A stretch of DNA of 32,000 nt from Candidatus Scalindua sp. (GTDB lineage: Bacteria; Planctomycetota; Brocadiia; Brocadiales; Scalinduaceae), in contig JALDRA010000001.1 of assembly GCA_031316235.1 (NCBI GenBank), positions 1,920,001-1,952,000 on the forward strand, written 5' to 3'. The notes beneath the pieces were generated by a model. That model ran no database searches, had not been told where the DNA came from, and saw only the letters and a program-made list of their open reading frames with translations. Below, one piece after another: positions 2,602-30,047 of the stretch. The position numbers were made by a program, and so were the translations under genes. The stretch's first letter is position 1. Each line of letters begins with the position of its first letter.

Positions 2602-3288
2602 TTAAGCATCTTTTACGCAACGAAAACCCACATTATTATCTTTACCCGACGGTACGCTACAACTTCTATAAGAACATTTCAGGGCATACATGTGATTTAT
2701 CCATGATCCACCCCGGACAACTCGATATTTCCCAACGGAATACCATTCCTGGCACCACTCCCACACATTACCCGACATATCATGGCATCCGTAAGGGCTC
2801 GCTCCAAGCGGATGTTTTCCCACGACAGAGGGAAAACCCCTGGAAGACTCCAGGTCAAATACAGCCAGTCCCTCATCGGGTTTCATGTTTCCCCAGGGAT
2901 ATTCCCTTCCATCAGTCCCGCGAGCCGCTTTTTCCCACTCTTTCTCTTCAGGCAGTCTCTTCCCTGCCCAATTTGCATAGGCCGTTGCGTCATCCCAGCT
3001 TACACCAACAACAGGTTGTTCGGGATTATTAAATTTTTCATCTTCCCAAAAAGCTGGCAAATCGTGCCCGGTTTCTTCTATAAATTTCCTGTATTGTTTA
3101 TTTGTTATAGGGTATTTATCTATATAAAACTCCCTAATTTCAATGGATTTTTTTTCATTCCACATAAAAAAAGGGCCGGCAGGAACATACGCCATCAACG
3201 CTCCATCTTTTTCGTGAATAATCTCATTTTTACTTATTATATTACCCATAGAGTGAATATATTCATACAAATCAATAATTTTCAACAA
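2602..3288 (-). CDS. formylglycine-generating-enzyme (SUMF1/FGE-sulfatase) family protein, probably non-catalytic
   Basis: Motifs YPITNKQYRKF, GVSWDDATAYANWAGKRLPEEKEWEKAARG, NVWEW, RVVRGGSW and GFRCV are typical of PF03781. No signal peptide. The CxxxxC cysteine pair after RGGSW, as I remember it from canonical FGE, is not present (SWINHMYALKC). Confidence 0.85.
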   Translation of the reverse strand: MLKIIDLYEYIHSMGNIISKNEIIHEKDGALMAYVPAGPFFMWNEKKSIEIREFYIDKYPITNKQYRKFIEETGHDLPAFWEDEKFNNPEQPVVGVSWDDATAYANWAGKRLPEEKEWEKAARGTDGREYPWGNMKPDEGLAVFDLESSRGFPSVVGKHPLGASPYGCHDMSGNVWEWCQEWYSVGKYRVVRGGSWINHMYALKCSYRSCSVPSGKDNNVGFRCVKDA

Positions 3289-3408: not shown

Positions 3409-3771
3409 TTAATGCATACCGCCAAAAAGATCTACTGAGAAAGAGAAAGATTCTCGTTTCTGAATCCCGATTTTAAAATGAACGACAACTGACTCCCCCG
3501 ATGATAATACCTCATCACCCACATCAGGTGTTAAAGTTGCTCCAGCACCAGCTGCACCTCCATCAGCATTGAGAAGCAGGTTCCCGCCTGAAAGTTCTGC
3601 TACCTGAAAAAATGGATTGAAAACAGGAATTGAAGTGCTATTCGTATTGGTAAAAATTACCTCAATTATGAAAGTACCTGCCTGCCCACCGGGTACTGGT
3701 GTGGGGACATAGCTGGTTACTGTTTTATCCCGTTCAACATGAACCAGTTCGTTTACAATGGGGGGGGGTAA
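3409..3771 (-). pseudogene. start-less out-of-frame continuation of the DUF1566 gene (C-terminal ~120 codons)
   Basis: Manual translation of the minus strand in the frame with codon first bases at 3771, 3768 ... gives an open 120-codon frame: LPPPIVNELVHVERDKTVTSYVPTPVPGGQAGTFIIEVIFTNTNSTSIPVFNPFFQVAELSGGNLLLNADGGAAGAGATLTPDVGDEVLSSGESVVVHFKIGIQKRESFSFSVDLFGGMH*. The stop is at 3411-3409. There is no usable start codon, and the frame opens inside the C9 tract of the upstream gene. Confidence 0.6.
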
Positions 3772-4927
3772 TTATGCCTCCACGCACAGGCCATACATAG
3801 TCTTTTCCCGATACTGAACCACTCTTGAATCCTCCCTGCACTCCTCCCTCAAACAAGAAGTATGTCCAGGCACTGTTGATTCTGGTATATATTGTTGTAG
3901 AGGTCCAGTAATAGTCAGGTCCCGGTGCAGGAGCCGGTAAAGAGTGAACCTCTGAAAAAGGGTGGTCTCCCGGCAGGGCAGGATTAAATTTCGAGAAGTC
4001 AGTGAGACTTTCGAACTCTTTACGATTTGGGAGACGCCAGTCATTATACCCGAGATAATGAATACTGTTAATACACGCAACATATTCAAGAGCTTCTTGC
4101 CATGTCCTGCTTCCGCCAACACACTCTTCTATACTCACCGTCCCGGCATTCTGCATCCACATAATACCAGTCAAATTATCCGTCACTGTTCCGTCTCCAT
4201 GGTTAATAAACCTGGGAATTGGCCACGGCTCTCCTTCTTGCCTCTCTCCATCGTCACCTGTCATATAGCTTATGGTCTGCCCGGTTGCCCACACTGATAC
4301 CGGGCCATCACTAGTTCCGCGTACGGCCCATGCACCGTACGTTGTCATTTGCTTGGAAAAGGGGTGCATGATACCGGAAGGCTGGATTGACCAAACCCTG
4401 GTTGGATTGTGAGCAACAGTTGTTGATGATATATAACCTTCTCTTACATTAACGAACCCGTTACTATGTAACCACTTGAGATCATCTGTCGTCAAAAGAC
4501 TAACCAGTTCATTCACGTTTGGCAGCCGCCAGTCATTGTACGTCGCCGAGTACTCAGAGCAACGATAATTATCCGGTAATTTATTGAGTACTTCAATCGC
4601 ATTAAAGGCATCTTCCCAATTACGCAGTCCTAAACAGCTTCCATCTTTAAGCCACATAAGCCCTGTCAGGTTATCCGTAACCGTACCATCCTCATGGTCC
4701 TTAAATCTCGGGTTTGGCCATGAAAGACCCGCCTGAATGTTACCATCATCCCCTGCGGCATGGGGGAATGTCTGTCCGGTCTTTGGAAGATCGACGGCAG
4801 CGGAATGGTGCATGTCGAAAAAAAATAACAGGGAGATTATCAATAGAGACAATCTCGAAAGAAATATACTGGGAATCCTCAGCTTTTTGTTGTTTACATT
4901 TCGTACATGATGCCTTGTGCAATACAT
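3734..4927 (-). CDS. secreted protein with two tandem DUF1566 (Lcl C-terminal, C-type-lectin-like) domains; reading frame interrupted at a poly-C tract
   Basis: Internal duplication: GTVTDNLTGLMWLKD...WEDAFNAIEVLN...YNDWRLPNVNELVSL and GTVTDNLTGIMWMQN...WQEALEYVACIN...YNDWRLPNRKEFESL. There is an N-terminal hydrophobic signal/anchor. The frame ends 8 codons after the C9 tract. Confidence 0.8.
   Translation of the reverse strand: MYCTRHHVRNVNNKKLRIPSIFLSRLSLLIISLLFFFDMHHSAAVDLPKTGQTFPHAAGDDGNIQAGLSWPNPRFKDHEDGTVTDNLTGLMWLKDGSCLGLRNWEDAFNAIEVLNKLPDNYRCSEYSATYNDWRLPNVNELVSLLTTDDLKWLHSNGFVNVREGYISSTTVAHNPTRVWSIQPSGIMHPFSKQMTTYGAWAVRGTSDGPVSVWATGQTISYMTGDDGERQEGEPWPIPRFINHGDGTVTDNLTGIMWMQNAGTVSIEECVGGSRTWQEALEYVACINSIHYLGYNDWRLPNRKEFESLTDFSKFNPALPGDHPFSEVHSLPAPAPGPDYYWTSTTIYTRINSAWTYFLFEGGVQGGFKSGSVSGKDYVWPVRGGIITPPHCKRTGSC
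3760..3768 (-). repeat. homopolymer tract, G9 on the plus strand = C9 in the coding strand
   Basis: Counted directly: g at 3760-3768. It lies exactly at the junction of the two reading frames of the DUF1566 gene. Confidence 0.95.
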
Positions 4928-4977
4928 AACTTATTCACTCCTAATGACTTACAAAGTAATTATGCTTCCTTGAAAAA

Positions 4978-5832
4978 TTAAATCCCCCACTTATATTTAA
5001 TATATTTTTTTGCCTGACGGTAACCTTGCTCAAAAAGATACTGTTTCTCATCTGTACTCAATGAAAAGTTGGTCGGCATTATATCACCACAATAAATGAG
5101 AATAGTATCGTTCCATTTTGTCCTCTTGACACGCTCTCTTTCAACTGCATGTAATTGTATCAAAAGCAATCCTTGAATGTATTTTTTAAGAGTAAAATGT
5201 TTTGGAGCAGCCTTCAGGACTGGCCGGTTAGAAATTATTCTAAATATAAGCGTTTTACCTTGCTTCTCAAACATATCCTCTACCACACCAGACATTAAAT
5301 TCCCATCAATAAATATATGCCGGTTACCATTATGGCTAAAATGTTTGTACGCATATACCCAGGGGATTCCAATTGAAAAACGAACAGCTCGTGAAACCTT
5401 CAGATCAGGAAAATTTGAACGAGAAAACACAAAAGGGCTATTATTCAAGACATCAGTAGCAATAACAAAAGGTGCAAGACGAAAGTTATCCCCGAAAGTC
5501 CTTCCTTCCAACTTTTCATCGATCCAATCCTCAAGAAACTTACCCTCATAGAGACCTTTTCCCCTCAAAAGACTCATAACACGGAAGTCCCTGAAAAGAG
5601 AAAAGTCAAACTCCATTGCAATCTTTTTAATCTCAAGAGGAGACTTTCCCATTGCGTAGAGGCTCCCGATAATACTTCCTCCGGATGCAGCCACTATTTT
5701 ATTTATCTTCAGCCCCTTTTCCTCCAGTGCTGAAAGCGCACCGACAAAGGCAAGACATCGTACACCACCACCAAGCAGCATGAGTGTTATAGGTTCGGCC
5801 ATGTTCTGAAATTGTTCTTTATCAATACTCAT
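4978..5832 (-). CDS. patatin-like phospholipase
   Basis: Oxyanion motif LGGGVRC, nucleophile elbow AASGGS (GxSxG variant) and catalytic Asp motif FIDGNL. 284 aa, no signal peptide. Confidence 0.85.
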   Translation of the reverse strand: MSIDKEQFQNMAEPITLMLLGGGVRCLAFVGALSALEEKGLKINKIVAASGGSIIGSLYAMGKSPLEIKKIAMEFDFSLFRDFRVMSLLRGKGLYEGKFLEDWIDEKLEGRTFGDNFRLAPFVIATDVLNNSPFVFSRSNFPDLKVSRAVRFSIGIPWVYAYKHFSHNGNRHIFIDGNLMSGVVEDMFEKQGKTLIFRIISNRPVLKAAPKHFTLKKYIQGLLLIQLHAVERERVKRTKWNDTILIYCGDIMPTNFSLSTDEKQYLFEQGYRQAKKYIKYKWGI

Positions 5833-5959
5833 CTTAAAATGATTTTCGGATAAAATCCGAATAAAAACGGGGCGATCATACCCTTAACCAGACTTTGGGT
5901 TTTAGAAAAATTTAAAACCAAATCGGTGTTAGCATATCAAAGCAGCTCCTGTTTAAAAA
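5830..5959 (-). repeat. promoter + structured-leader module, copy D (fused to the patatin ATG)
   Basis: Minus strand: -35 TTTTTA (5959-5954), extended -10 TGaTATGCT (5939-5931), hairpin 1 at 5924-5891, hairpin 2 TCGGA-TTTTA-TCCGA at 5860-5846, then TTAAG-ATG-AGT-AT (ATG = 5832-5830). It aligns along its length with the copies at 9133, 15770 and 29865. Confidence 0.7.
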
Positions 5960-6014
5960 ACTTACTTCAAATGCCCCGAAAAACTTCCAGAGAGATATTT
6001 CAGATCGAAAGCCT

Positions 6015-6830
6015 TTAATAAAACTCTTTTCTTTCAAAACAGAAAGTGGCCAGCCATAATACAATTATACAGTACAGAACACTATAAAGAGAGGCATAGA
6101 AGATATAGAGAGGTACATATTCGTTTGAAATACTGTTCATGGCAAAGATATTAAGACTCCAGAAGTTTGGAAATACCACATAGCAGATTTTTACTACAAA
6201 GTTGACAGCTACCGGAGCCTTTTCGATTAAAGTAAAAAGATAACTAATGATATGTGAAAGAATGAAAACAGCAAAGCAGGTAATCAGGTTTGCCGACACA
6301 TTCAGATAAACCGACAAGATTACCGATATTGAAGTCAGCATGAGAACCTGCAGCAGTGAAAAATATATCCCCTGTAAACAGTAAGAATCCAGCAGCTGTG
6401 AACTCCCCTCCATACCGAGAGAGGGCTCCAGGTTAGAAAAACCGACTACCTGATCCAGCTTTATCAAGACTTCTAAAAAGGTAGCCTGCAGAAAAATCAA
6501 TACAATTACGGCAGCAGCAATGCCAAAAAATTTCCCCAGGACAATTTGCACTCTTGTAACTGGTTTACAGAGTAATGCCAGAATTGTCTTCCTTTTGAAC
6601 TCATTTGTAATCAAAACAGAGGAGGAGAGTATGCCGGTCAATAGACCGCAAAGAGTTATTGTCGATATCGCCATATCCTTTACCATTCGCAGCTCCTCTC
6701 CGAATGCAAAAAAAGTAAACATAAAAGACATGAACAGGATAAAACAACCGGAAAAAAGCAATATATAATAAAATGGCTGCCTGACTACCTCCTTGAAACT
6801 GTTAAAAGCCAACGAGAAAAGCTTTTTCAT
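6015..6830 (-). CDS. ABC-2 type transporter permease (no adjacent ATPase)
   Basis: Multi-pass membrane protein. NEFKRKTILALLCKPVTRVQIVLGKFFG resembles the ExxxGTxExLLxxPxxRxxxxxGK motif of ABC-2 permeases. I prefer the ATG at 6830, which has a GGAG 7 nt upstream, over the TTG at 6866. Confidence 0.65.
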   Translation of the reverse strand: MKKLFSLAFNSFKEVVRQPFYYILLFSGCFILFMSFMFTFFAFGEELRMVKDMAISTITLCGLLTGILSSSVLITNEFKRKTILALLCKPVTRVQIVLGKFFGIAAAVIVLIFLQATFLEVLIKLDQVVGFSNLEPSLGMEGSSQLLDSYCLQGIYFSLLQVLMLTSISVILSVYLNVSANLITCFAVFILSHIISYLFTLIEKAPVAVNFVVKICYVVFPNFWSLNIFAMNSISNEYVPLYIFYASLYSVLYCIIVLWLATFCFERKEFY

Positions 6831-6847
6831 GCTCGATCTCCAATAAA

Positions 6848-6863
6848 TGTTCCACGTGAAACA
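6848..6863. promoter_or_regulatory. parS: parS centromere-like site
   Basis: TGTTCCACGTGAAACA matches the 16-bp consensus TGTTNCACGTGAAACA at every specified position. It lies 179 bp upstream of parB. Confidence 0.8.
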
Positions 6864-7041
6864 CAATTTGATAAAACAGACGAAAAACTCTCACACCAGA
6901 AAATAGACAATCCTTTCCAGAGAGCTACAGGCTGTAGGAAATATTTTCCTCCTACCCACAAGAAACTCCTTGAATAAGGAACGAGAATCTGTTACTTAAT
7001 ACCTGATTATTTATTTTTTTCAAGCATTTTTTATACGCATT

Positions 7042-7932
7042 ATGACGACAACAAAAAACAAGAAAAAACTGGGGCTTGGTCTTCAAACCTTACTTGGAGA
7101 GGCAATCGGTATCGAACCAACTGATGACATCTCAAAGTTAAACATAGATAAAATTGTAGCTAACGAAACTCAACCCCGAAAGTTTTTCTCCCAGGAGCAA
7201 ATTGAAACATTGGCAAGCTCGATACAGGAGCACGGCATACTGCAGCCCATTATAGTTCGCCCGACAGAGAAAGGGTATACAATTATTGCTGGAGAAAGAA
7301 GATGGAGGGCAGCGAAAAGGTTAGGATTAAGTGAAGTGCCGGTTGTCATCAAGAAAACCGACAACTTAAAGTCCCTTGAGCTCGCCCTGGTAGAGAATAT
7401 CCAGAGAGAAGATCTAAACCCCATGGAAAAAGCCCTGGCGTTTTTTGCATTAAAAAGTGAATTCGGACTAACACAGGTGCAAATTGCTGAGCAGGTAGGG
7501 CTCGATCGCTCATCAATAGCTAATACTCTCCGCCTCCTTGAGCTTCCCCAGGATATACAGGATTTTGTTTCACGTGGAACAATTTCAATGGGACACGCCC
7601 GGGCACTTTTGGCGCTGAAAGATACAGAGAAACAAAGGTCTATATGCGACAAGATTGTGCCTTTCAATCTATCGGTACGTGATGTGGAACTTATCGTTTC
7701 TGGTCGGAAAAAGTTGTCAGATTTTTCCCCAACTCCCGAAACACATCCCGAGAAATCACCTCCTCCCCAAAAGAAACATCCACAAATTATTGCTCTTGAA
7801 GACAAACTAAGAGAGTATCTTGGGACAAAAATCTCTATCAGGGAAAACAGGGGGAAGGGGAAAATAGTTATCGAGTTTTCAAATCACCTGCAATTCGAAG
7901 AACTTGTTTCCAAATTCAAGAGGCTGGCATGA
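7042..7932 (+). CDS. parB: chromosome partitioning protein ParB/Spo0J
   Basis: N-terminal KKLGLGLQTLLG, the ParB-box GERRWRAAKRLG, and the HTH region LTQVQIAEQVGLDRSSIANTLRLL. Confidence 0.92.
   Translation: MTTTKNKKKLGLGLQTLLGEAIGIEPTDDISKLNIDKIVANETQPRKFFSQEQIETLASSIQEHGILQPIIVRPTEKGYTIIAGERRWRAAKRLGLSEVPVVIKKTDNLKSLELALVENIQREDLNPMEKALAFFALKSEFGLTQVQIAEQVGLDRSSIANTLRLLELPQDIQDFVSRGTISMGHARALLALKDTEKQRSICDKIVPFNLSVRDVELIVSGRKKLSDFSPTPETHPEKSPPPQKKHPQIIALEDKLREYLGTKISIRENRGKGKIVIEFSNHLQFEELVSKFKRLA
7566..7581. promoter_or_regulatory. parS: parS site inside the parB coding sequence
   Basis: TGTTTCACGTGGAACA is the exact reverse complement of the 6848-6863 site. It encodes FVSRGT within parB. 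Confidence 0.8.
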
Positions 7933-8012
7933 GTTTGCTACAGTGGGAAATATCAGCAACGGTGCGTTTTTTGACTTTACCATTTTCACGATAAGACTCT
8001 CTCAAGGGTAAC

Positions 8013-8858
8013 TCAATCTTCCATAAGTCTTAAATAGCTCTCAGCACACCCTTTTGCCAGGTTTCTTATCCTGCCAATGTATCTCGTTCGTTGTGCAACA
8101 CCGATTGATTTTCTGGCGTCTAACAAATTGAATGCATGTGAACACTTTAAGACATGATCGTAAGCGGGAAGGACATTCTCCTCTTTCAGCAAACGCTTGC
8201 ACTCCGTCTCATACATTTCAAACTGCCGTAAAAGCATCTCTGTATCCGCCATCTCAAAACAATATTTTGAGAATTGTATCTCATCTAAGCGGTGTACATC
8301 TCCATAGGTATACCCCTCCACCCACTCTAAATCAAATACCGACTCTTTTTCCTGGATAAACATCGCGATTCTTTCAAGACCGTACGTCAGCTCCAGAGAG
8401 ATAACGTCCAACTCTATTCCGCCTACCTGTTGAAAATAGGTAAATTGGGTTATCTCCATACCGTCAAGCCACACTTCCCACCCTAATCCTGTTGCACCCA
8501 ATGTTGGAGATTCCCAGTCGTCTTCCACAAAACGGACATCGTGCTGCACCAAGTCGATGCCAAGAAATCTTAAGCTGTTTAAATATAAATACTTAGAGTC
8601 TTCTGGTGCGGGTTTTATAACCACCTGGAACTGATAATAGTGCTGTAACCTGTTCGGGTTTTCACCATATCTCCCGTCAGTTGGTCTTCTGGAAGGTTCG
8701 ACATAGGCACATTTCCAGGGTTTTTTTCCAAGAACCCTCAAAAAAGTTGATGGATTAAAGGTACCAGCGCCTACCTCAATATCATATGGCTGCATGATAA
8801 CACAGCCCTTATCGGACCAATATTTTTGCAGATTAAGTATTATTTCCTGAAAATTCAT
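8013..8858 (-). CDS. glyQ: glycine--tRNA ligase alpha subunit
   Basis: Near full-length similarity to GlyQ ([54 protein letters not shown]). I prefer the ATG at 8858 (AAGGGG 9 nt upstream; typical MxFQ N-terminus). An alternative ATG lies at 8876. Confidence 0.93.
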
Positions 8859-8957
8859 ATTTTCACACCCCTTCATTTTTATACTATAGATTGTTCAAGC
8901 GTGAGAACTCATGCCAGGAAAAGGTATTCATGTCGTTGCTCACACCACGTATGCACA

Positions 8958-8988
8958 CTTCAGCATAATGAAACGCACTATGCTGAAG
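8958..8988. other. perfect 10-bp stem hairpin in the glyQ upstream region
   Basis: CTTCAGCATA (8958-8967) pairs with TATGCTGAAG (8979-8988), with an 11-nt loop. No flanking T-run on either strand. Confidence 0.5.
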
Positions 8989-9132
8989 CGTTACCATTCA
9001 AAATTGACAATGTTATGCAAGTTAATGAGTGCTTGAATGGAAATCTCGTTGTCAAGCCAATAGTGCCAGGAGAAAGGATGCGTCGATTTCACAGCGTGAA
9101 CGTTAATAAAGTACCGGAGGGTGACTGAATTA

Positions 9133-9260
9133 TTGCAGCCGTGAAGTAGATGGATATACTAAAACCGATTTGGTTTTCGGTTTTACCGGAAACCAAATCC
9201 TGGTGAAGGTATACTCACTCAATTTTGTCTCGGATTTTATCCGAAATCCAGTATGAGATA
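9133..9260 (+). repeat. promoter + structured-leader module, copy A (orphan, ATA in place of ATG)
   Basis: -35 TTGCAG (9133-9138), 16-nt spacer, -10 TATACT (9155-9160). Hairpin 1 at 9167-9199 has a 14-bp stem with one G-T pair and loop TTTTA. Linker CTGGTGAAGGTATACTCACTCAATTTTG. Hairpin 2 TCGGA-TTTTA-TCCGA at 9230-9244. GAG-ATA at 9255-9260. Confidence 0.7.
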
Positions 9261-9398
9261 AGTGTAGTTTTCGTTCAACCACATATGAGCAAAATTCACA
9301 TCCGGATAGGGAATCAGGAAGCTCAGCGGTGATACACACCAACTGTTTTCAAGATCCAGATCTCTTCCGCCCTGATTTACTCTGTTAAACAGCCATTC

Positions 9399-9887
9399 TC
9401 ATTTTCTCGCACAATCCTCAACATTTCCCTTTATCAGCTCCAATACATGGGGTATTGCCTTCAAAACAACATCGAGGCATTCAGCAACCGCCTTCGGGCT
9501 GCCGGGGAGATTGATGATCAAGCTCTCCTTGTATATGCCCGAGAGTGCTCGTGAACCTAAGGCCCTGGGCGTTATCTTAAAACTTTCAGCCCTCATCGCT
9601 TCTGAAAAACCCGGTAGCTCTTTTTCTATTACGTCCCTGGTCGCTTCAGGGGTAACATCCCTCGGGCTGACACCTGTACCTCCTGTAGTGAGCACCAAGT
9701 TCGCACCTTCTTCGGCCAGTCCCTTCAACCGTTGAGCAATTACGTCCCTCTCATCCGGAATGATCTCATACGCAATTACATCAGCCTGAATTTCTCCCAG
9801 TTTCTCCCTGATCACCTTGCCACTTTTGTCTTCTCTTTCACCACGCGAACCTTTGTCGCTTATGGTGAGTATCGCCGCTTTAATCAT
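9399..9887 (-). CDS. mog: molybdopterin adenylyltransferase / MoaB-Mog family protein
   Basis: MogA/MoaB fold motifs: ILTISDKGS, LVLTTGGTGVSPRDVTPEAT, PGFSEAMR and the PGSPKA-like segment. The start overlaps the stop of the upstream MOSC gene by 8 nt. Confidence 0.85.
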   Translation of the reverse strand: MIKAAILTISDKGSRGEREDKSGKVIREKLGEIQADVIAYEIIPDERDVIAQRLKGLAEEGANLVLTTGGTGVSPRDVTPEATRDVIEKELPGFSEAMRAESFKITPRALGSRALSGIYKESLIINLPGSPKAVAECLDVVLKAIPHVLELIKGNVEDCARK

Positions 9888-13719: not shown

Positions 13720-14370
13720 GATATTTACTTCCCCTGGTGAGTAATGTCAATCTGCACGTTTGAAATTCAAAGAGAGACTCTCTGTAATAAATATCCTTAA
13801 TTTTCGTTAAACTGGTCATCTCTTTTACTCTGAAAAAATGAGTATGCAATTTGCAAGACCATCCTTTCACATCTTGATAAATCAGCAATAAACGTACCAA
13901 ATAGCTGAATATGTGAGGTTACCAAGTTTCATATCGAACATAAGTAATTGAACTGGAACCCGATAGTTAAATGAAAGCTGTCATGATACAAGGTGTACTA
14001 ATTTTATAACTGTTAGTAAATAAATTACTTGAGTATTACTGAATCTTTACTGCAACGTGGTAGAAAGGTAGTTTTTGCTCAACTATTCACCAGGTTCTCT
14101 AAATCAGATTATTGAATTTTTTTGATATATAATCCAAATGAAATCGGGATGATAAGCCACCACCAGTGAATAAATAATCAACACTGTGTTTAATATTACA
14201 ACTGGTGTAAAAATGTTGTACCTGTTTTCAAGGAGCAACTTCTGAGAAAAATTCTTGAATTTTAATAATTATTTCACTATCCTTGCTCTGTTTATACTCA
14301 TCTTTTATTAGTTTAAGGTAAAGAAAACAATATTCTAATCGTCATAATCGAAAATCAGGAAATTACTCAG

Positions 14371-15084
14371 ATGATGCACCAAACAGTGGAAGAGATTGAA
14401 GCACTCTTTTCAAAATGCGGAGGAGAGTTTCTCACACCTGCCGTAAAAATCATGGAAAAACTCAGGTATGTAAAAGCCTACCTTTTTGACTGGGACGGCG
14501 TTTTTAATCCCGGTATTAAGGGTGACGAAATCAAAAGTACTTTTGCAGAACCCGACGCAATGGGCTCAAACCTCCTGAGATTTGGCCACTGGCTGAAATT
14601 TAAGGAGCTTCCTTTGTTCGGAATTATCACTGCCATGAACAACAAGTCCGCTTTCCAGCTCTCAGAGAGAGAACATTTTCATCTCGTATATTCCCGTCTT
14701 CTGAATAAAGTTAAAGCACTTGAGCACATTGAAAACAGATACGGCATTAACAGACAACAGGTGGTTTTTGTTTTTGATGATGTTCTTGATCTGTCAATCG
14801 CCCAGACCTGCGGGTTGCGATTTTTGGTAAAGAGGACAGGTAGCCCCCTTTTTGAAGAGTATGTAAGAAAAAAAGGGCTGTGTGATTACGTCTGCACCAA
14901 TAACGGTTCAGGTTATGCGGTAAGAGAAATTTGCGAACTAATCCTGGGGCTTTTAAGCATTTATTCTCAAACGGTTGATGAGCGGGTCAAATTTTCTTCT
15001 CTTTACGAAACGTATCTTTCAGAAAGAAACTCTCTGGTTACAACTTTTTATACAATGAAGGATGAAATTATTCAAGAGGAATAG
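14371..15084 (+). CDS. HAD-superfamily phosphatase, KdsC-like (subfamily IIIA)
   Basis: Motif I LFDWDGVF and motif IV-like FVFDDVLDL, with an overall KdsC-like arrangement. A ~40-aa N-terminal extension makes the assignment tentative. Confidence 0.5.
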   Translation: MMHQTVEEIEALFSKCGGEFLTPAVKIMEKLRYVKAYLFDWDGVFNPGIKGDEIKSTFAEPDAMGSNLLRFGHWLKFKELPLFGIITAMNNKSAFQLSEREHFHLVYSRLLNKVKALEHIENRYGINRQQVVFVFDDVLDLSIAQTCGLRFLVKRTGSPLFEEYVRKKGLCDYVCTNNGSGYAVREICELILGLLSIYSQTVDERVKFSSLYETYLSERNSLVTTFYTMKDEIIQEE

Positions 15085-15199
15085 TAGTCTTGATCTGTCA
15101 AGATACTCGATTGCACCGAGATAAATTTTTTTTAGTGTCTTTGTTTTATCATGGCAGGAAAGATCGATTCATTGTTCACTTTTTCGAAAGGAATACCTT

Positions 15200-15754
15200 A
15201 TGTCAAAACATGTGCTGGTTCCAATAGCGGATGGGAGTGAAGAGATTGAAACTGCTTGTATTGTTGATGTTTTACGGCGTGCTGGTGCCACTGTTACCGT
15301 TGCATCGGTCGGGAAATTGCAGGTTACTGGATCGAGAGATATGAAATTTATCGCTGATCGTTTATTACCAGAATGCGTTGATGATATGTATGATCTGATA
15401 GTTTTGCCGGGTGGCATGCCGGGAGCAGAACATCTACGTGATTCGAAAGAATTAACGGAATTATTGAAACGTCAAAATCAGGACAAAAGATTGTATGCGG
15501 CCATATGTGCCTCTCCTGCGGTAGTCTTACAGTATCACGGCCTCTTAGATAAACGTAAGGCAACTGCATATCCAGGCTTTACCGACCTTCTTGAAAATAC
15601 TGAAGCGATAGATTCACGGGTAGTGGTGGATGGCAACTGTATCACCAGCCGTGCTCCGGGAACCGCTATGGAGTTTTCCTTAACATTAGTTGACATTCTC
15701 TATGGAGAACAAAAAGCAAAAGAGATTGCGCAATCCATGCTCGTTGAGTGGTAA
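15200..15754 (+). CDS. DJ-1/PfpI (YajL/ThiJ-like) family protein
   Basis: Nucleophile elbow AAICASPAVVL, LPGGMPGAEHL, ITSRAPGTAMEFSL. AAAGGA Shine-Dalgarno 9 nt upstream. Confidence 0.9.
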   Translation: MSKHVLVPIADGSEEIETACIVDVLRRAGATVTVASVGKLQVTGSRDMKFIADRLLPECVDDMYDLIVLPGGMPGAEHLRDSKELTELLKRQNQDKRLYAAICASPAVVLQYHGLLDKRKATAYPGFTDLLENTEAIDSRVVVDGNCITSRAPGTAMEFSLTLVDILYGEQKAKEIAQSMLVEW

Positions 15755-15769
15755 AAGTACATACAATTT

Positions 15770-15851
15770 CATCATACAGACTCGCTCAATTTTATCTCGG
15801 ATTTTATCCGAAATCCAGTATGAGATGAGTATATCTTTTTTTTCTGAATAG
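15770..15851 (+). repeat. promoter + structured-leader module, copy B (truncated: hairpin 2 + ATG + 8-codon ORF)
   Basis: ACAGACTCGCTCAATTTTATC-TCGGA-TTTTA-TCCGA-AATCCAGTATGAG-ATG (hairpin 2 at 15797-15811; ATG at 15825). About 50 nt match copy A with 3 mismatches. Then ATG AGT ATA TCT TTT TTT TCT GAA TAG (MSISFFSE*), which contains a T8 run at 15836-15843. Confidence 0.7.
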
Positions 15852-24040: not shown

Positions 24041-26464
<2,424 letters not shown>

Positions 26465-26482
26465 TTAATTAGCTCCTTACAA

Positions 26483-26809
26483 TTATTCTTTTATTATACC
26501 TACCTTGAATTTTATGTCAGAAATATATCTGCTCTTATACCCTTCTTGCATACTCTTTAACAGTTCCTGTTTTCGGAATGCAACGATATTATGAAGCCAG
26601 ATAGCTGAATCTACTTTAATAGTAAGTACGCTTCCCTTTATTCCTTCAACTTCTGTGTGTTCTGAAATATCAGTGTCAACATTTTTCATCCACGCATTTT
26701 TCAAACTGCTGTTTTTGTATCTTTCAGCATTGAGTCTTTTAACCGTATTTATAATAAATCCGCTGAGCGGTTTCACATCTCTATCAATTTTCCCATAAAA
26801 ACTGTTCAT
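26483..26809 (-). CDS. DUF721 (DciA-like) protein
   Basis: 108 aa between dnaN and gyrB. The pattern LKNAW..V...ISEHTEVEGIKGSVLTIKVDSAIWLHNI..RKQELL......I.DIKFKVG fits DUF721. Its start overlaps the dnaN stop by 4 nt (ATGA). Confidence 0.75.
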   Translation of the reverse strand: MNSFYGKIDRDVKPLSGFIINTVKRLNAERYKNSSLKNAWMKNVDTDISEHTEVEGIKGSVLTIKVDSAIWLHNIVAFRKQELLKSMQEGYKSRYISDIKFKVGIIKE

Positions 26810-27921
26810 TGTGATTTTCTGGTTTCCCGTATCTTCAGAGGCATCAGCATATAGAGGTAATAATTCCCCAGCCTGAATACACCCGCAGTGCCCTTGTCTT
26901 TTAATTCAAACCGTACCTGATTATCATCTACCACTCTCAAGAAATCTAATATATAGTCAGGATTAAACCCGATTTCCAACTCCTCATCTCTATACTCGAT
27001 TGTCATTGACAGCCTGGCTTCTCCTACATCTGGTGTTGAACACTTCAGCTCAAGCATATCATTGAAAAATTTAAAACACAGTAACTTGTAATCCTCAACA
27101 GTCATGATTGCACCTTTTCTCACTGCAGATATAAATTCAGCTCTATTTAACACAGCAAATTTGTTCAAATCTGAAGGGATCACTTTTTCATAATCAGGAT
27201 ATTTACCATCAATTAATTGGGAAGATACTGTTACATTTTTCGTTCTTATCAGTATGCGTTTTTCGTCTATTTTTATCTTAATAAGCTCATCACTGTCAAC
27301 AAGCATTTTTATGATTTGTGAGGCACTTTTTATTGGTATCACACAACTTTTGATCATCCCTTCAGGATTGTTGATTTTCCTTTTTATTTCGGCGAGTCTT
27401 CTACCATCGTTCGTTACCATTTTTGCCTGCTCACCATCGACAACGAATAATATACCACTATAGGCAGATTTAGTACGGTCCGCCAGAGCGATAAACATTG
27501 TTTTCTTTATCATATCAGCAAAAACTCTGCTATCGATTTCTATAAAATTTTCATCATTGAAACTTGGAATAACTGGAAAATCTTCCGGAATAGCGCAGAG
27601 AATTTTAAAGTAACCATCTTTCCCTGTAATTTCACAGACTCTTTCATTCTCAACGATATCTATCCTGTCATTATTCCATTCTTTTACAACTGAAACAATT
27701 TTATGTCCAGGACACACTATGGTACCTGGTGCTGTAACCTTAAGGCATTCAATGTGGTAAGTTATGCTGATTTCAAGATCGGTAGTTGACAATTCCAGGG
27801 TATTATCATGAGCGGTGATTTTAACATTTTGTAATATTGGTTTTAAATTTGAACTGGAAATAACGCTTTCTACCAGAAGGAATCCTTTTTTAAGGATATT
27901 GTTGTCACAAGTAATGTTCAC
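26806..27921 (-). CDS. dnaN: DNA polymerase III beta subunit (sliding clamp)
   Basis: 371 aa. The N-terminus has a ..LLK.....V.......PIL.NV.I....N.L.L..TDLEISI pattern, with the three-domain length typical of DnaN. GTG start, immediately downstream of dnaA. Confidence 0.92.
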   Translation of the reverse strand: MNITCDNNILKKGFLLVESVISSSNLKPILQNVKITAHDNTLELSTTDLEISITYHIECLKVTAPGTIVCPGHKIVSVVKEWNNDRIDIVENERVCEITGKDGYFKILCAIPEDFPVIPSFNDENFIEIDSRVFADMIKKTMFIALADRTKSAYSGILFVVDGEQAKMVTNDGRRLAEIKRKINNPEGMIKSCVIPIKSASQIIKMLVDSDELIKIKIDEKRILIRTKNVTVSSQLIDGKYPDYEKVIPSDLNKFAVLNRAEFISAVRKGAIMTVEDYKLLCFKFFNDMLELKCSTPDVGEARLSMTIEYRDEELEIGFNPDYILDFLRVVDDNQVRFELKDKGTAGVFRLGNYYLYMLMPLKIRETRKSQ

Positions 27922-28219
27922 AGTGTTTGTTCGTTAAAATTCAATGTAGTAAGATAAAGTAGTTCTTATAAAATTTTTTATTATCCTTCTTATTATTGTA
28001 TGTCAATTATGGTTATAACGTATTAAATAATTTATAACATAATGTATCAAAAAAACATAGGAATATTTAATATGTTCATAACTATGTCCATAATGGTAAA
28101 ATTATCGAAGATTAATTAACATATTTTGTTGTCAAAATTTCTATTAAAGTCGGGAACATGTTTTTTAATGACACAAATGTGACAATTATCTACAGGATAT
28201 TTACACACTGTGAAGGCCG
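27922..28219. other. oriC: candidate oriC (dnaA-dnaN intergenic spacer)
   Basis: A 298-bp non-coding spacer, visibly more AT-rich than its flanks. DnaA-box-like 9-mers: TTATCTACA (28186-28194, 8/9 to TTATCCACA), TTATCCTTC (27981-27989, 7/9) and TGTCCATAA (28085-28093, 7/9 reverse). Recurrent TTATAAC/TTCATAAC motifs at 28012-28080. Confidence 0.45.
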
Positions 28220-29563
28220 CTACTTGGTAAGTTCTTTTTCTATTTTTCTTAAGATTACAGAAAAATTTCGATCTGTTTTTTGTAGTTTTTTGATTTTTTC
28301 ATTAGCATGCATCACAGTAGTATGATCTCTCCCGCCCAGATAACCGCCTATTTCTTTAAGAGAAAGATTCGTAAACTTTCGCGCTAAATACATTGCTATC
28401 TGTCTGGGCAACGTAATAGATTTAAATTTTCTTCTAGAGAGAATCTGAGAAATCTGGATGTTAAAATGTCTTGTAACAGTTCTTAATATATCTTCTATGC
28501 CAAGAAGTTTTTTTTTCTCAGCAAAACCTTCAATTACCTGCTTTACGAGATCCAAATTTAGCACTTCTTTACTAATTGATGCGTATCGTGCTAAATTTAC
28601 CAGGGTACCCTCGATTTCTCTCACATTTGAGGAAGCATTTTCTGCAATGAAGTTTGCAGCGTCGTTTGATATATTTAAGTTCGCTAACGCAGCTTTTCTT
28701 TGTATGATTGCTATGCTCGTCTCAAAACTTGGCGGGTCAATTCTCGTTATAAGCCCCCACCTGAATCTAGATATGAGCCGTTCCTCTATTGTTGGTATCT
28801 CTTCGGGTGGACAATCACTTGAAAGAACAATTTGCTTTTGTCTGTTATACAAGCTATTGAAAGTATGGAAGAACTCTTCACGGGAACTTTGTGATTTTGC
28901 TAAAAACTGCACATCATCAATTAATAAAAAATCTACGTTTCTGTACATATTTCTAAAACCATTCCAGTCTCCAGTCCTTATGGTGGAAATATAGTGGTTG
29001 ATAAAACTCTCGCAGGGCAGAAACAATGTGTTGTGTTGACGTGCCTGTTGTTGTAAATATATGGCTTGGAGCAGGTGTGTTTTTCCCAGGCCTACCTGGC
29101 CGTGGATAAATAAAGGATTATAAGAAGTGCCGGGTGATTCAGCAACGGCAAGTGCAGCGGCATGTGTCAGGCGGTTACAGGGTCCAACTAAAAAATTGTC
29201 AAACGTGTAGTTCTTATTTATATAATACTGCGTTTCTATCGTTTTTGGAACAATCGATTTTTGAGCAGGATCTACCAATCCTCTTTTATTATCATCCGCA
29301 ATGAGTGATATAGTTATTTTGGAATTTGTTGCCTCAAAAATGGCAGATATAATGACATCCATGTAATTTTTTTCCAACCACTCCTTGCAGTAGAGATTTG
29401 GTACTTTAATGGAAATTTCATGTCTGTTTATTTTGTTGAGACTTAAGTTTTCAAACCAGGTGGTAAATTGTTGAGGTGAGATATTTTCCTTGATATTTTC
29501 CCTGATGGAAAACCAGGTATCTTTATCTTTTTGCGGTAGATTACTCATTGATAAGTCCAGCAC
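28220..29563 (-). CDS. dnaA: chromosomal replication initiator protein DnaA
   Basis: Walker A GQVGLGKTHLLQAI, Walker B LLIDDVQFL, sensor/box VII regions, and C-terminal DNA-binding HTH (..IAMYLARKFTNLSLKEIGGYLGGRDHTTVMHA). The longest ORF starts at a GTG (29563); an alternative ATG lies at 29548. Confidence 0.97.
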   Translation of the reverse strand: MLDLSMSNLPQKDKDTWFSIRENIKENISPQQFTTWFENLSLNKINRHEISIKVPNLYCKEWLEKNYMDVIISAIFEATNSKITISLIADDNKRGLVDPAQKSIVPKTIETQYYINKNYTFDNFLVGPCNRLTHAAALAVAESPGTSYNPLFIHGQVGLGKTHLLQAIYLQQQARQHNTLFLPCESFINHYISTIRTGDWNGFRNMYRNVDFLLIDDVQFLAKSQSSREEFFHTFNSLYNRQKQIVLSSDCPPEEIPTIEERLISRFRWGLITRIDPPSFETSIAIIQRKAALANLNISNDAANFIAENASSNVREIEGTLVNLARYASISKEVLNLDLVKQVIEGFAEKKKLLGIEDILRTVTRHFNIQISQILSRRKFKSITLPRQIAMYLARKFTNLSLKEIGGYLGGRDHTTVMHANEKIKKLQKTDRNFSVILRKIEKELTK

Positions 29564-29864
29564 GGTTCTGTGAAGTCTTGAATTTTGCTGATTACTATTG
29601 CTCAGGTTCCTACGGTAGGATAAAACAGGTTTTTGGTTTCAGGAACATCTGAACCCCGGAAATTTTGATTACTGTTTGATAGATGAGCTTAAAGATCTGA
29701 TGATTTCCATAGTTTGAATGGTATGATTTCAATAATTTTCATACACCCATTAAATTTGGCAACTACGTTTAACGTTAGTTGTTCTCAGCCGATTTTATAT
29801 TGGAATTATACTGCTAATTTCTATAAGATCAAGTGTTAAGTCAAAAAGGGATTAGGGAAAAAGG

Positions 29865-30047
29865 TTGACTTTATTTATGCTTGTATGCTATATACTAACG
29901 GTGATCTGATTTTAGAGTTTTCTAAAAAAATCAATGCATGGTTGCAGTTAGATTCGTTCCATTTTCTATCGGATTTTATTAGAAAACCAATACGAGATGA
30001 TTATTTGGTTGATTTTTGTTTTTAACTGTAGCCGCTGCATTCTGTAG
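29865..30047 (+). repeat. promoter + structured-leader module, copy C, with a 16-codon ORF, upstream of the cupin/DUF2249 operon
   Basis: -35 TTGACT (29865-29870), 18-nt spacer, extended -10 TGcTATATA (-10 at 29889-29894). Hairpin 1 TGATTTT/AAAATCA (29907-29913 / 29927-29933). Degenerate hairpin 2 TCGGA-TTTTA-TTAGA (29969-29983). CGAG-ATG at 29997, then ATG ATT ATT TGG ... CTG TAG (MIIWLIFVFNCSRCIL*, to 30047). Confidence 0.7.

Follow-up and report, generated by a model that had tools for sequence, protein, structure and literature searches.

What is the structured segment that runs into the start codon of the patatin gene in a 32,000-nucleotide stretch of a Candidatus Scalindua genome (here called the window), and why does it recur next to unrelated genes? 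The window lies near the replication origin, since dnaA, dnaN, and parB are all encoded in it. The original prediction, made from the window alone, was a promoter followed by a two-hairpin leader that controls the downstream gene as a riboswitch, thermosensor, or protein-binding leader, or else a propagating “mobile promoter.” Our analysis keeps one part of this reading, a dispersed, structured, and possibly propagating module, and abandons the other, the promoter with its two-hairpin leader. [quoted passage not shown] We classify it in this way because it is short and non-coding, has inverted termini and a TA duplication, occurs in high copy number between genes, and shows insertion polymorphism. 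Published definitions of bacterial MITEs name terminal inverted repeats, 5'-TA-3' termini, a target-site duplication, a length below 200 bp, and the capacity to form stem-loops (PMC2229807, PMC3049150; see also PMC3733652).

The repeat itself is beyond doubt. The pattern TCGGATTTTATYMGAAA matches exactly four sites in the window (5844-5860 on the minus strand and 9230-9246, 15797-15813, and 29969-29985 on the plus strand), compared with a mean of 0.06 matches in shuffled sequence, and the copies can be aligned over about 110 nt. The pattern search also bore out the statement that the 17-mer is identical in three copies and has two mismatches in the fourth. Copy 1 has an ABC-2 permease gene on one side and the patatin gene on the other. 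Copy 2, which is nearest to the family consensus among the window copies, lies antisense to both of its neighbors, glyQ (8013-8876, minus strand) and a gene for a molybdopterin-binding-domain protein (9399-9887, minus strand). Copy 3 is only about 69% identical to copy 2 and is placed between dnaA (minus strand) and a cupin gene (plus strand), just past a TTGACT-bearing flank that is also found in locus L128. The copy between a DJ-1/PfpI gene and a metallo-beta-lactamase-fold gene, which had been called truncated and placed at 15770-15827, proved to be a stand-alone half of the element, unit B (see below), with TA flanks of its own; locus L057 likewise has a unit B by itself between two TAs.

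Coordinates of the element copies and related features in the window (position 1 is the first nucleotide of the window)
Feature	Position	Strand	Remarks
Empty TA target	4895-4896		Full element at this site in L076:1152-1264 (= L122:3908-4016)
Copy 1, full two-unit element, 109 nt	5826-5934	-	nhmmer 73 bits; limits from family alignment; TA flank at 5935-5936, right flank TT at 5824-5825
Copy 1, left terminal inverted repeat TGCTAACACCGATTTGGTTTTAAA	5911-5934	-	Family consensus TACTAAAACCGATTTGGTTTTCGG; holds the “-10” of the original prediction
Copy 1, right terminal inverted repeat CCGAAAATCATTTTAAGATGAGTA	5826-5849	-	Family consensus CCGAAAACCATTATGAGATGAGTA; holds the ATG
Copy 2, full element, 108 nt	9157-9264	+	nhmmer 99.7 bits; TA flanks at 9155-9156 and 9265-9266; limits from family alignment
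Possible decayed solo terminus TACTCATCTTTTATTAGTTTAAGG	14295-14318	+	17/24 matches to the reversed right terminus; weak, may be chance
Copy 4, unit B standing alone, 55 nt, a palindrome centered on hairpin 2	15777-15831	+	nhmmer model positions 56-109; TA flanks at 15775-15776 and 15832-15833
Copy 3, diverged full element, 111 nt	29893-30003	+	nhmmer 55.7 bits; limits from family alignment; TA flank at 29891-29892, right flank TT

To see how far the family extends, we scanned genomes (one per species) for the 17-mer and obtained at least 120 loci, about 41 of which belong to Scalindua or Scalinduaceae and come from the assemblies SCAELEC01, RBC_AMX3, and CBDCUS01 and from one “uncultured Planctomycetota.” In each of these roughly 41 loci the 17-mer is part of an element, either complete or as one unit, while the other listed loci hold the bare 17-mer alone, matching chance expectation. 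An nhmmer profile built from 15 basic copies and run on the window and the 120 fetched loci gave 61 matches, 36 of them full length. These were confined to the window, about 40 Scalindua/Scalinduaceae loci, and L057, with none in the other 79 or so fetched loci. Mean column identity among the aligned copies was 90%.

Lined up by this model, the full copies all read TA-TACTAAAACC...GAGATGAGTA-TA, the element itself beginning with TACT and ending with AGTA. A TA stands outside the left end in 34 of the 36 full copies, outside the right end in 33, and on both sides in 29; sequences beyond the TA flanks differ from copy to copy and are unrelated, and a comparison of the 36 full copies revealed in general no direct repeat longer than TA. 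When both termini are read inward (left, TACTAAAACCGATTTGGTTTTCGG; right, TACTCATCTCATAATGGTTTTCGG), 16 of 24 positions are equal. This imperfect inverted repeat includes an outer TACT and an inner 10-mer, TGGTTTTCGG, that are identical and equally spaced in both 24-nt termini, and the 10-mer is present three times in the two-unit form. The family alignment gives several parts of the supposed leader a different meaning. The “-10 box” (TATACT or TATGCT), together with the shared block ATAT(A/G)CTAA, is the TA flank followed by the left terminus TACTAA, and the TG that made the box of copy 1 an “extended -10” is flanking sequence outside the element limits. The ATG that had been taken as the endpoint of the leader sits 5 to 7 nt inside the right terminus (GATGAGTA), and the constant spacing of 95 to 100 nt between box and ATG is simply the length of the element.

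Both hairpins described originally are present, and they are the palindromic units of which the element is built. Its basic 109-nt form consists of two such units joined at TATA: unit A, a palindrome of about 62 nt whose arms make hairpin 1 and which ends in ...GGTGAAGGTA, and unit B, a palindrome of about 55 nt with hairpin 2 at its center (TACTCGCTCAATTTTATC-TCGGAT-TTT-ATCCGA-AAACCATTATGAGATGAGTA). Just as unit B can stand alone, a copy in L088 has unit A without unit B. The elements fall into size classes of 57, 91, 109 to 113, 131 to 143, and 169 to 237 nt. Forms of 57 nt have nothing but the two termini (L003:2557-2613 and L003:2896-2952), those of 131 to 143 nt have an extra 26- to 27-nt module (CCCCGGAC...GAGGACTT) at the junction of units A and B, and those of 169 to 237 nt are enlarged by GC-rich sequence inserted into the hairpin 1 loop. 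None of these forms, from 57 to 237 nt, is coding, and the small open reading frames that begin at element ATGs are unlike one another between copies (MR, MSISFFSE, and MIIWLIFVFNCSRCIL, each followed by a stop codon). The last of these, a small hydrophobic reading frame after copy 3, was considered as a toxin-like peptide and rejected for want of conservation in other copies. We also found a second, related family of about 182 nt with TA flanks and cleaner inverted termini (TATACCCATYRCRAAWTGGTTTTNGG).

Comparison of filled and empty sites offers a direct view of mobility. Locus L076 (SCAELEC01) is syntenic with window positions 3743-7928 at about 80% identity, and the site of copy 1 is without an element there, as it is in L122 and L123 (both AMX11), in L121 (CBDCUS01), and in L124, from a closer relative. 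The reverse situation is found between the patatin stop codon and the gene for an Lcl_C-domain protein, where L076 has an element and the window reads ...TTGTTGTT-TA-CATTTCG. The site of copy 3 is likewise empty in L128, L126, and L127. The cleanest evidence for an exact TA duplication is a nested insertion: L032 and L052 read CCTTG-TA-element-TA-CCTGG, whereas L121 has the host repeat uninterrupted as CCTTGTACCTGG. L035 and L108 are uninformative, as synteny is lost there ahead of the element. Filled and empty sites with a TA duplication identify the family as a transposable element, and the “mobile” half of the “propagating mobile promoter” was therefore right. A 2-bp TA duplication is, formally, the same in appearance as an element that targets TA and ends in TA. 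Relative to L124, copy 1 is bracketed on both sides by a 6-nt repeat, TTGATA, which no other copy shows and which we treated as chance or a small slip; any other origin would be at odds with a plain TA duplication.

If the copies were instead a shared cis-regulatory module, with a promoter at the left end and a two-hairpin leader acting on the gene downstream, they should be arranged with respect to that gene. At first sight some features of the window invite this reading: the left end bears a TATACT/TATGCT hexamer, three of the four window copies face a gene, an ATG close to the right end continues in frame into patatin, the hairpins fold (in two copies with z-scores of -4.5 and -2.9), and some bacterial MITEs are known to supply promoters or to affect mRNA stability (PMC2229807, PMC3733652). 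However, among the 41 copies with neighbors on both sides, as judged from crude ORF-based gene calls, the next gene shares the strand of the copy in 24 cases and lies on the opposite strand in 17 (p = 0.35, approximately), which is near random, and the distance to it ranges from -26 to 1065 nt. Scatter of this kind was among the outcomes that the original prediction had itself named as refuting it. Nor is there a bias with respect to the upstream gene (20 on the same strand, 21 on the opposite). All copies lie between long ORFs, a single “inside ORF” call being an artifact of an ORF left open at the end of its locus. A promoter scan detected no two-hexamer, sigma-70-like promoter (-35/-10 pair) at any of the three full window copies, and copy 2, besides being antisense to both neighbors, heads into a convergent gene from its 3' end. 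Further evidence against a conserved leader comes from the sister genomes, in which the orthologous genes lack the element.

The RNA-level evidence adds little to the case for a leader. At the gathering score, an Rfam search of the whole window returned only tRNA-Val and tRNA-Asp, and a permissive search of positions 5700-9400 gave nothing overlapping copies 1 or 2 at E values up to 10, in agreement with the earlier remark that the module matches no known RNA family. The compensatory change from G:C to A:T in the copy near 29900 is real, although it is one event in one diverged copy; in the alignment, pair 19/41 of hairpin 1 is GC in 19 cases, AU in one, and GU in one. Over the whole structure, double changes of any kind are seen in 3 of the 30 predicted pairs, with a negligible covariation term of 0.05 kcal/mol; at 90% identity this comparison has little power. 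The tip of hairpin 1 does vary and is often still paired (CGG/CCG, CAG/CTG, AGA/TCT), but the variants are few, and the pattern is as well explained by subfamilies of a palindromic element as by an RNA structure. Taken with the patatin evidence given below, these results make a shared cis-regulatory module very improbable. Still harder to credit is a family of small RNA genes, each with its own -10 and acting in trans, for which one could cite the good conservation of the copies and the stable folds of some of them. The only terminator-like site at the three full copies is a weak one at hairpin 2 of copy 1, the consensus after hairpin 2 reads AAAACC, and neither a promoter nor an Rfam family was found; moreover, the TA duplication, empty sites, nested insertions, and half-units typify a transposable element and not a gene family.

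The patatin gene deserves separate attention, because it is here that the element looks most like part of a gene. The first ATG of the patatin ORF, at 5830-5832, lies inside the right terminus of copy 1, and the NCBI patatin protein (P0001, 100% identity) is annotated from this very codon, which speaks for a built-in leader. Against it, homologous patatins have N-terminal tails that vary in length and sequence before the conserved core EPITLMLLGGG, and the annotated start of the AMX11 patatin corresponds to an internal ATG of the window gene, 10 codons downstream of the element ATG. In L122 (AMX11) the in-frame codons upstream are open back to a TTG, whereas the corresponding TTG of the window is out of frame, and there the element ATG alone keeps the extension open. 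Judged from these sequences, translation of the window patatin might begin at either codon, the element ATG or the internal ATG.

If the interval is a MITE, what might move it? Probably this is done in trans by a transposase of the IS630/Tc1-mariner type, to which the TA duplication and the inverted termini, and these two features only, point. To our knowledge, IS630/Tc1-mariner elements are the only known prokaryotic group to make 2-bp TA duplications. In the mechanism that we propose, a TA-specific DDE transposase of this type would cut and paste the element after recognizing the terminal TACT and the inner 10-mer TGGTTTTCGG, the latter being its likely binding site; insertion takes place at a TA, which is duplicated. 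Effects on neighboring genes would then be a by-product of where a copy lands, such as the in-frame ATG at the 5' end of patatin or a structured stretch in the 5' region of the cupin operon. Elements of the IS630 family have been reported from anammox genomes (PMC7814187).

A search for the transposase itself in 44 Scalindua loci (about 350 kb) gave no candidate with matching ends among their multi-copy ORFs; an all-against-all comparison of 237 ORFs brought up ordinary paralogues only (HMA, DtxR/FeoA, SDR, NtrC-type regulators, DEAD helicase, and MauJ). Similarly, a metagenome scan for a terminus followed by non-element sequence yielded one match, which was a variant of the element, and no transposase. 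The sole pair of inverted termini 0.8 to 2 kb apart, at 14293-15833, was considered as an autonomous parent and rejected: one of the termini is weak, and the pair encloses the DJ-1 gene and an ORF without a Pfam match. It is conceivable, by analogy with Correia elements, that the genome may have lost the cognate transposase.

Alternatively, a Y1 (HUH) transposase could move the element in single-stranded form, the element then being either a palindrome-associated one derived from IS200/IS605 or a REP/RAYT-like repeat. Such an element would not truly duplicate its short target (..TA) but insert on the 3' side of it, and the 2-nt “duplication” seen here is formally equal to an element whose last two bases match its target. 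Hairpins near both ends, 8 to 10 nt from the left and 22 nt from the right, and the often paired variation at the apex of hairpin 1 would also suit this idea. However, each end is an inverted copy of the other, with TACT and TGGTTTTCGG at the same spacing, while IS200/IS605 ends are not inverted repeats, and the related family of about 182 nt has inverted termini that are cleaner still. No Y1 transposase of about 140 aa was found in the 44 Scalindua loci, a small sample, and the multi-copy ORF of about 135 aa near clusters of the element encodes a heavy-metal-associated (HMA) domain protein. Finally, there is no conserved GTAG/CGTC tag like that on REPs (PMC3733652). We regard a single-stranded-DNA mover as improbable.

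Among known repeats, the closest to the Scalindua element, taken as a TA-targeting MITE, are RUP and Correia/NEMIS, with BOX as the closest in modular build. RUP, a MITE of Streptococcus pneumoniae that is thought to be moved by IS630-Spn1, is about 107 bp long, non-coding, and intergenic, and it is present in about a hundred copies or more; it shares with the Scalindua element terminal inverted repeats, insertion at TA, and folding into a stem-loop (PMC2229807, PMC3049150). The two have no sequence relation, and RUP is a simple unit, in contrast to the two palindromic units and optional modules described here. A resident IS630 with matching ends is known for RUP, whereas none was found in the sampled Scalindua loci. 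In this respect the Correia/NEMIS elements of Neisseria are more alike, having TA termini, a TA duplication, and no known cognate transposase; their short and long forms differ by an internal block (107 versus 155 bp), and copies adjoin genes and can be cotranscribed with them (PMC2229807). The inverted repeats of Correia are 24 to 26 bp long and well matched, with an IHF site, while that of the Scalindua element is bipartite and imperfect. BOX elements of Streptococcus (boxA-boxB(n)-boxC) resemble it in being modular and of variable size, with modules in varying combination, and in supplying start codons that create or extend ORFs (PMC3049150); they are unlike it in that their modules are not each flanked by TA and do not form two tandem palindromic units, and there is no sequence relation. 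REP/REPIN repeats with their RAYT are likewise short, palindromic, intergenic, and high in copy number, and they also occur in Planctomycetes (PMC3733652). Yet REPs measure 20 to 40 bp, have a GTAG or CGTC tag and a RAYT gene, and are without terminal inverted repeats and TA duplication; neither the tag nor a RAYT gene was seen for the Scalindua element in the sampled loci.

In about 76 kb that had not been selected by motif (the window with L121, L122, L124, L126, L127, and L128), we counted about eight copies or part-copies. This corresponds to roughly one per 8 to 10 kb and would mean, by loose extrapolation, some hundreds in each genome. The 21-kb dnaA regions of S. japonica and S. rubra, whose DnaA proteins are 63 to 64% identical to that of the window, had no copies at E values up to 1, and in this small sample the family seems confined to the clade of the window genome, AMX11/SCAELEC01, RBC_AMX3, and CBDCUS01. 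Our literature search brought up no paper tying Scalindua to MITEs or intergenic repeats, so the element is apparently undescribed in this genus, though otherwise of an ordinary kind. It opens no new mechanism, and its general interest is modest: it adds an example from the Planctomycetota to the TA-targeting bacterial MITEs and provides a concrete terminus sequence for a transposase hunt.

For work on these genomes, the family has more immediate consequences. Gene callers stretch ORFs to an element ATG, as in the NCBI patatin protein, and the hairpins of the element can be mistaken for regulatory RNAs. Its density partly explains why Scalindua assemblies are fragmented, and its insertion polymorphisms are possible strain or species markers for metagenomes from oxygen-minimum zones and sediments. 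It is tempting to speculate that the host has recruited some copies, a fate that Correia elements have met in Neisseria: the right terminus of copy 1 may give the patatin-like phospholipase a working start, and copies in 5' regions, among them the one that separates the cupin operon, next to dnaA, from a conserved flank with TTGACT, may add a structured leader that changes expression. We consider such recruitment rather unlikely; if true, it would make the family an active agent of rewiring in an uncultured anammox lineage.

The window adjoins the chromosomal replication origin, and carries dnaA, dnaN and parB together with a 108-aa ORF and an 804-aa ORF that occupy the positions of DciA and gyrB in related loci. 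The intergenic region between dnaA and the cupin gene holds copy 3 of the element. Directly 5' of this copy lies a flank, GGTTGACTTT(A/T)TTTATG...TATG(C/A)TATA, that is shared with the related locus L128, which lacks the element. Judged by eye from its hexamers, including a TTGACT, this flank may be the promoter of the cupin operon; a consensus promoter scan of the same flank flagged no promoter. If it is the cupin operon promoter, copy 3 was inserted in or beside its -10 region.

Coordinates of genes and repeats in the window and in related loci
Feature	Locus	Position	Strand
dnaA, dnaN, 108-aa ORF, 804-aa ORF, parB	window	24041-29563; 7042-7932	-; +
dnaA	window	28220-29563	-
dnaN	window	26806-27921	-
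Flank of copy 3	window	29855-29892	
Patatin-like phospholipase gene	window	4978-5832	-
Solo match to right terminus	window	14295-14318	+
237-aa ORF	window	14371-15084	
Second MITE family, ~182 nt	L041	4156-4337	
	L042	3193-3373	
	L052	453-634	
	L107, L003, L024, L034, L118		
Third repeat, ...CAATACCGTAATCCTCA...CGCGCCTTGTACCTGGACAGTTTTAGCTCAAACA...	L121	~3060-3190	
	L032	7500-7760	
	L052	6850-7110	
26-mer TATACCCATGAATACGTGGATTCGGC	L130	15809-15834; 21186-21211	
HMA domain genes	L003	2100-2507	
	L107	7068-7478	

At the patatin-like phospholipase gene of the window, the database protein P0001 begins at an ATG supplied by the MITE, and the annotated protein of L121 (P0002, 350 aa) has its N terminus 66 residues farther upstream, across the intergenic repeat. 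Both N termini look like annotation artefacts of repeats. In L121, the third repeat lies uninterrupted 5' of patatin; in L032 and L052, the MITE splits it, and these two loci share 97% identity over 260 nt.

The element itself also varies. In six loci (L048, L058, L065, L082, L106, and L109), the loop of hairpin 1 carries insertions of ~30 to 120 nt (e.g., CCGTCCGAACGGCTGACAGGCCGGGCGGGC) that are GC-rich, whereas the element is AT-rich, and these might be nested small elements. One stretch of the window, TACTCATCTTTTATTAGTTTAAGG, looks like a solo right terminus of the element, with 17 of 24 positions matching, and lies close 5' of a 237-aa ORF without a Pfam match; it may be either a decayed fragment or a chance similarity.

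The second MITE family is found in the same genomes as the element studied here and is likewise flanked by TA, and its inverted termini are cleaner than those of the element (TATACCCATYRCRAAWTGGTTTTNGG). Probably, one transposase is common to both families. In Candidatus Scalindua rubra, a species without the studied family, a 26-mer occurs twice, 5.4 kb apart, and could represent the terminus of yet another TA-flanked repeat family. Finally, two paralogous genes for heavy-metal-associated (HMA) domain proteins of ~135 aa each immediately adjoin a cluster of several MITE copies.
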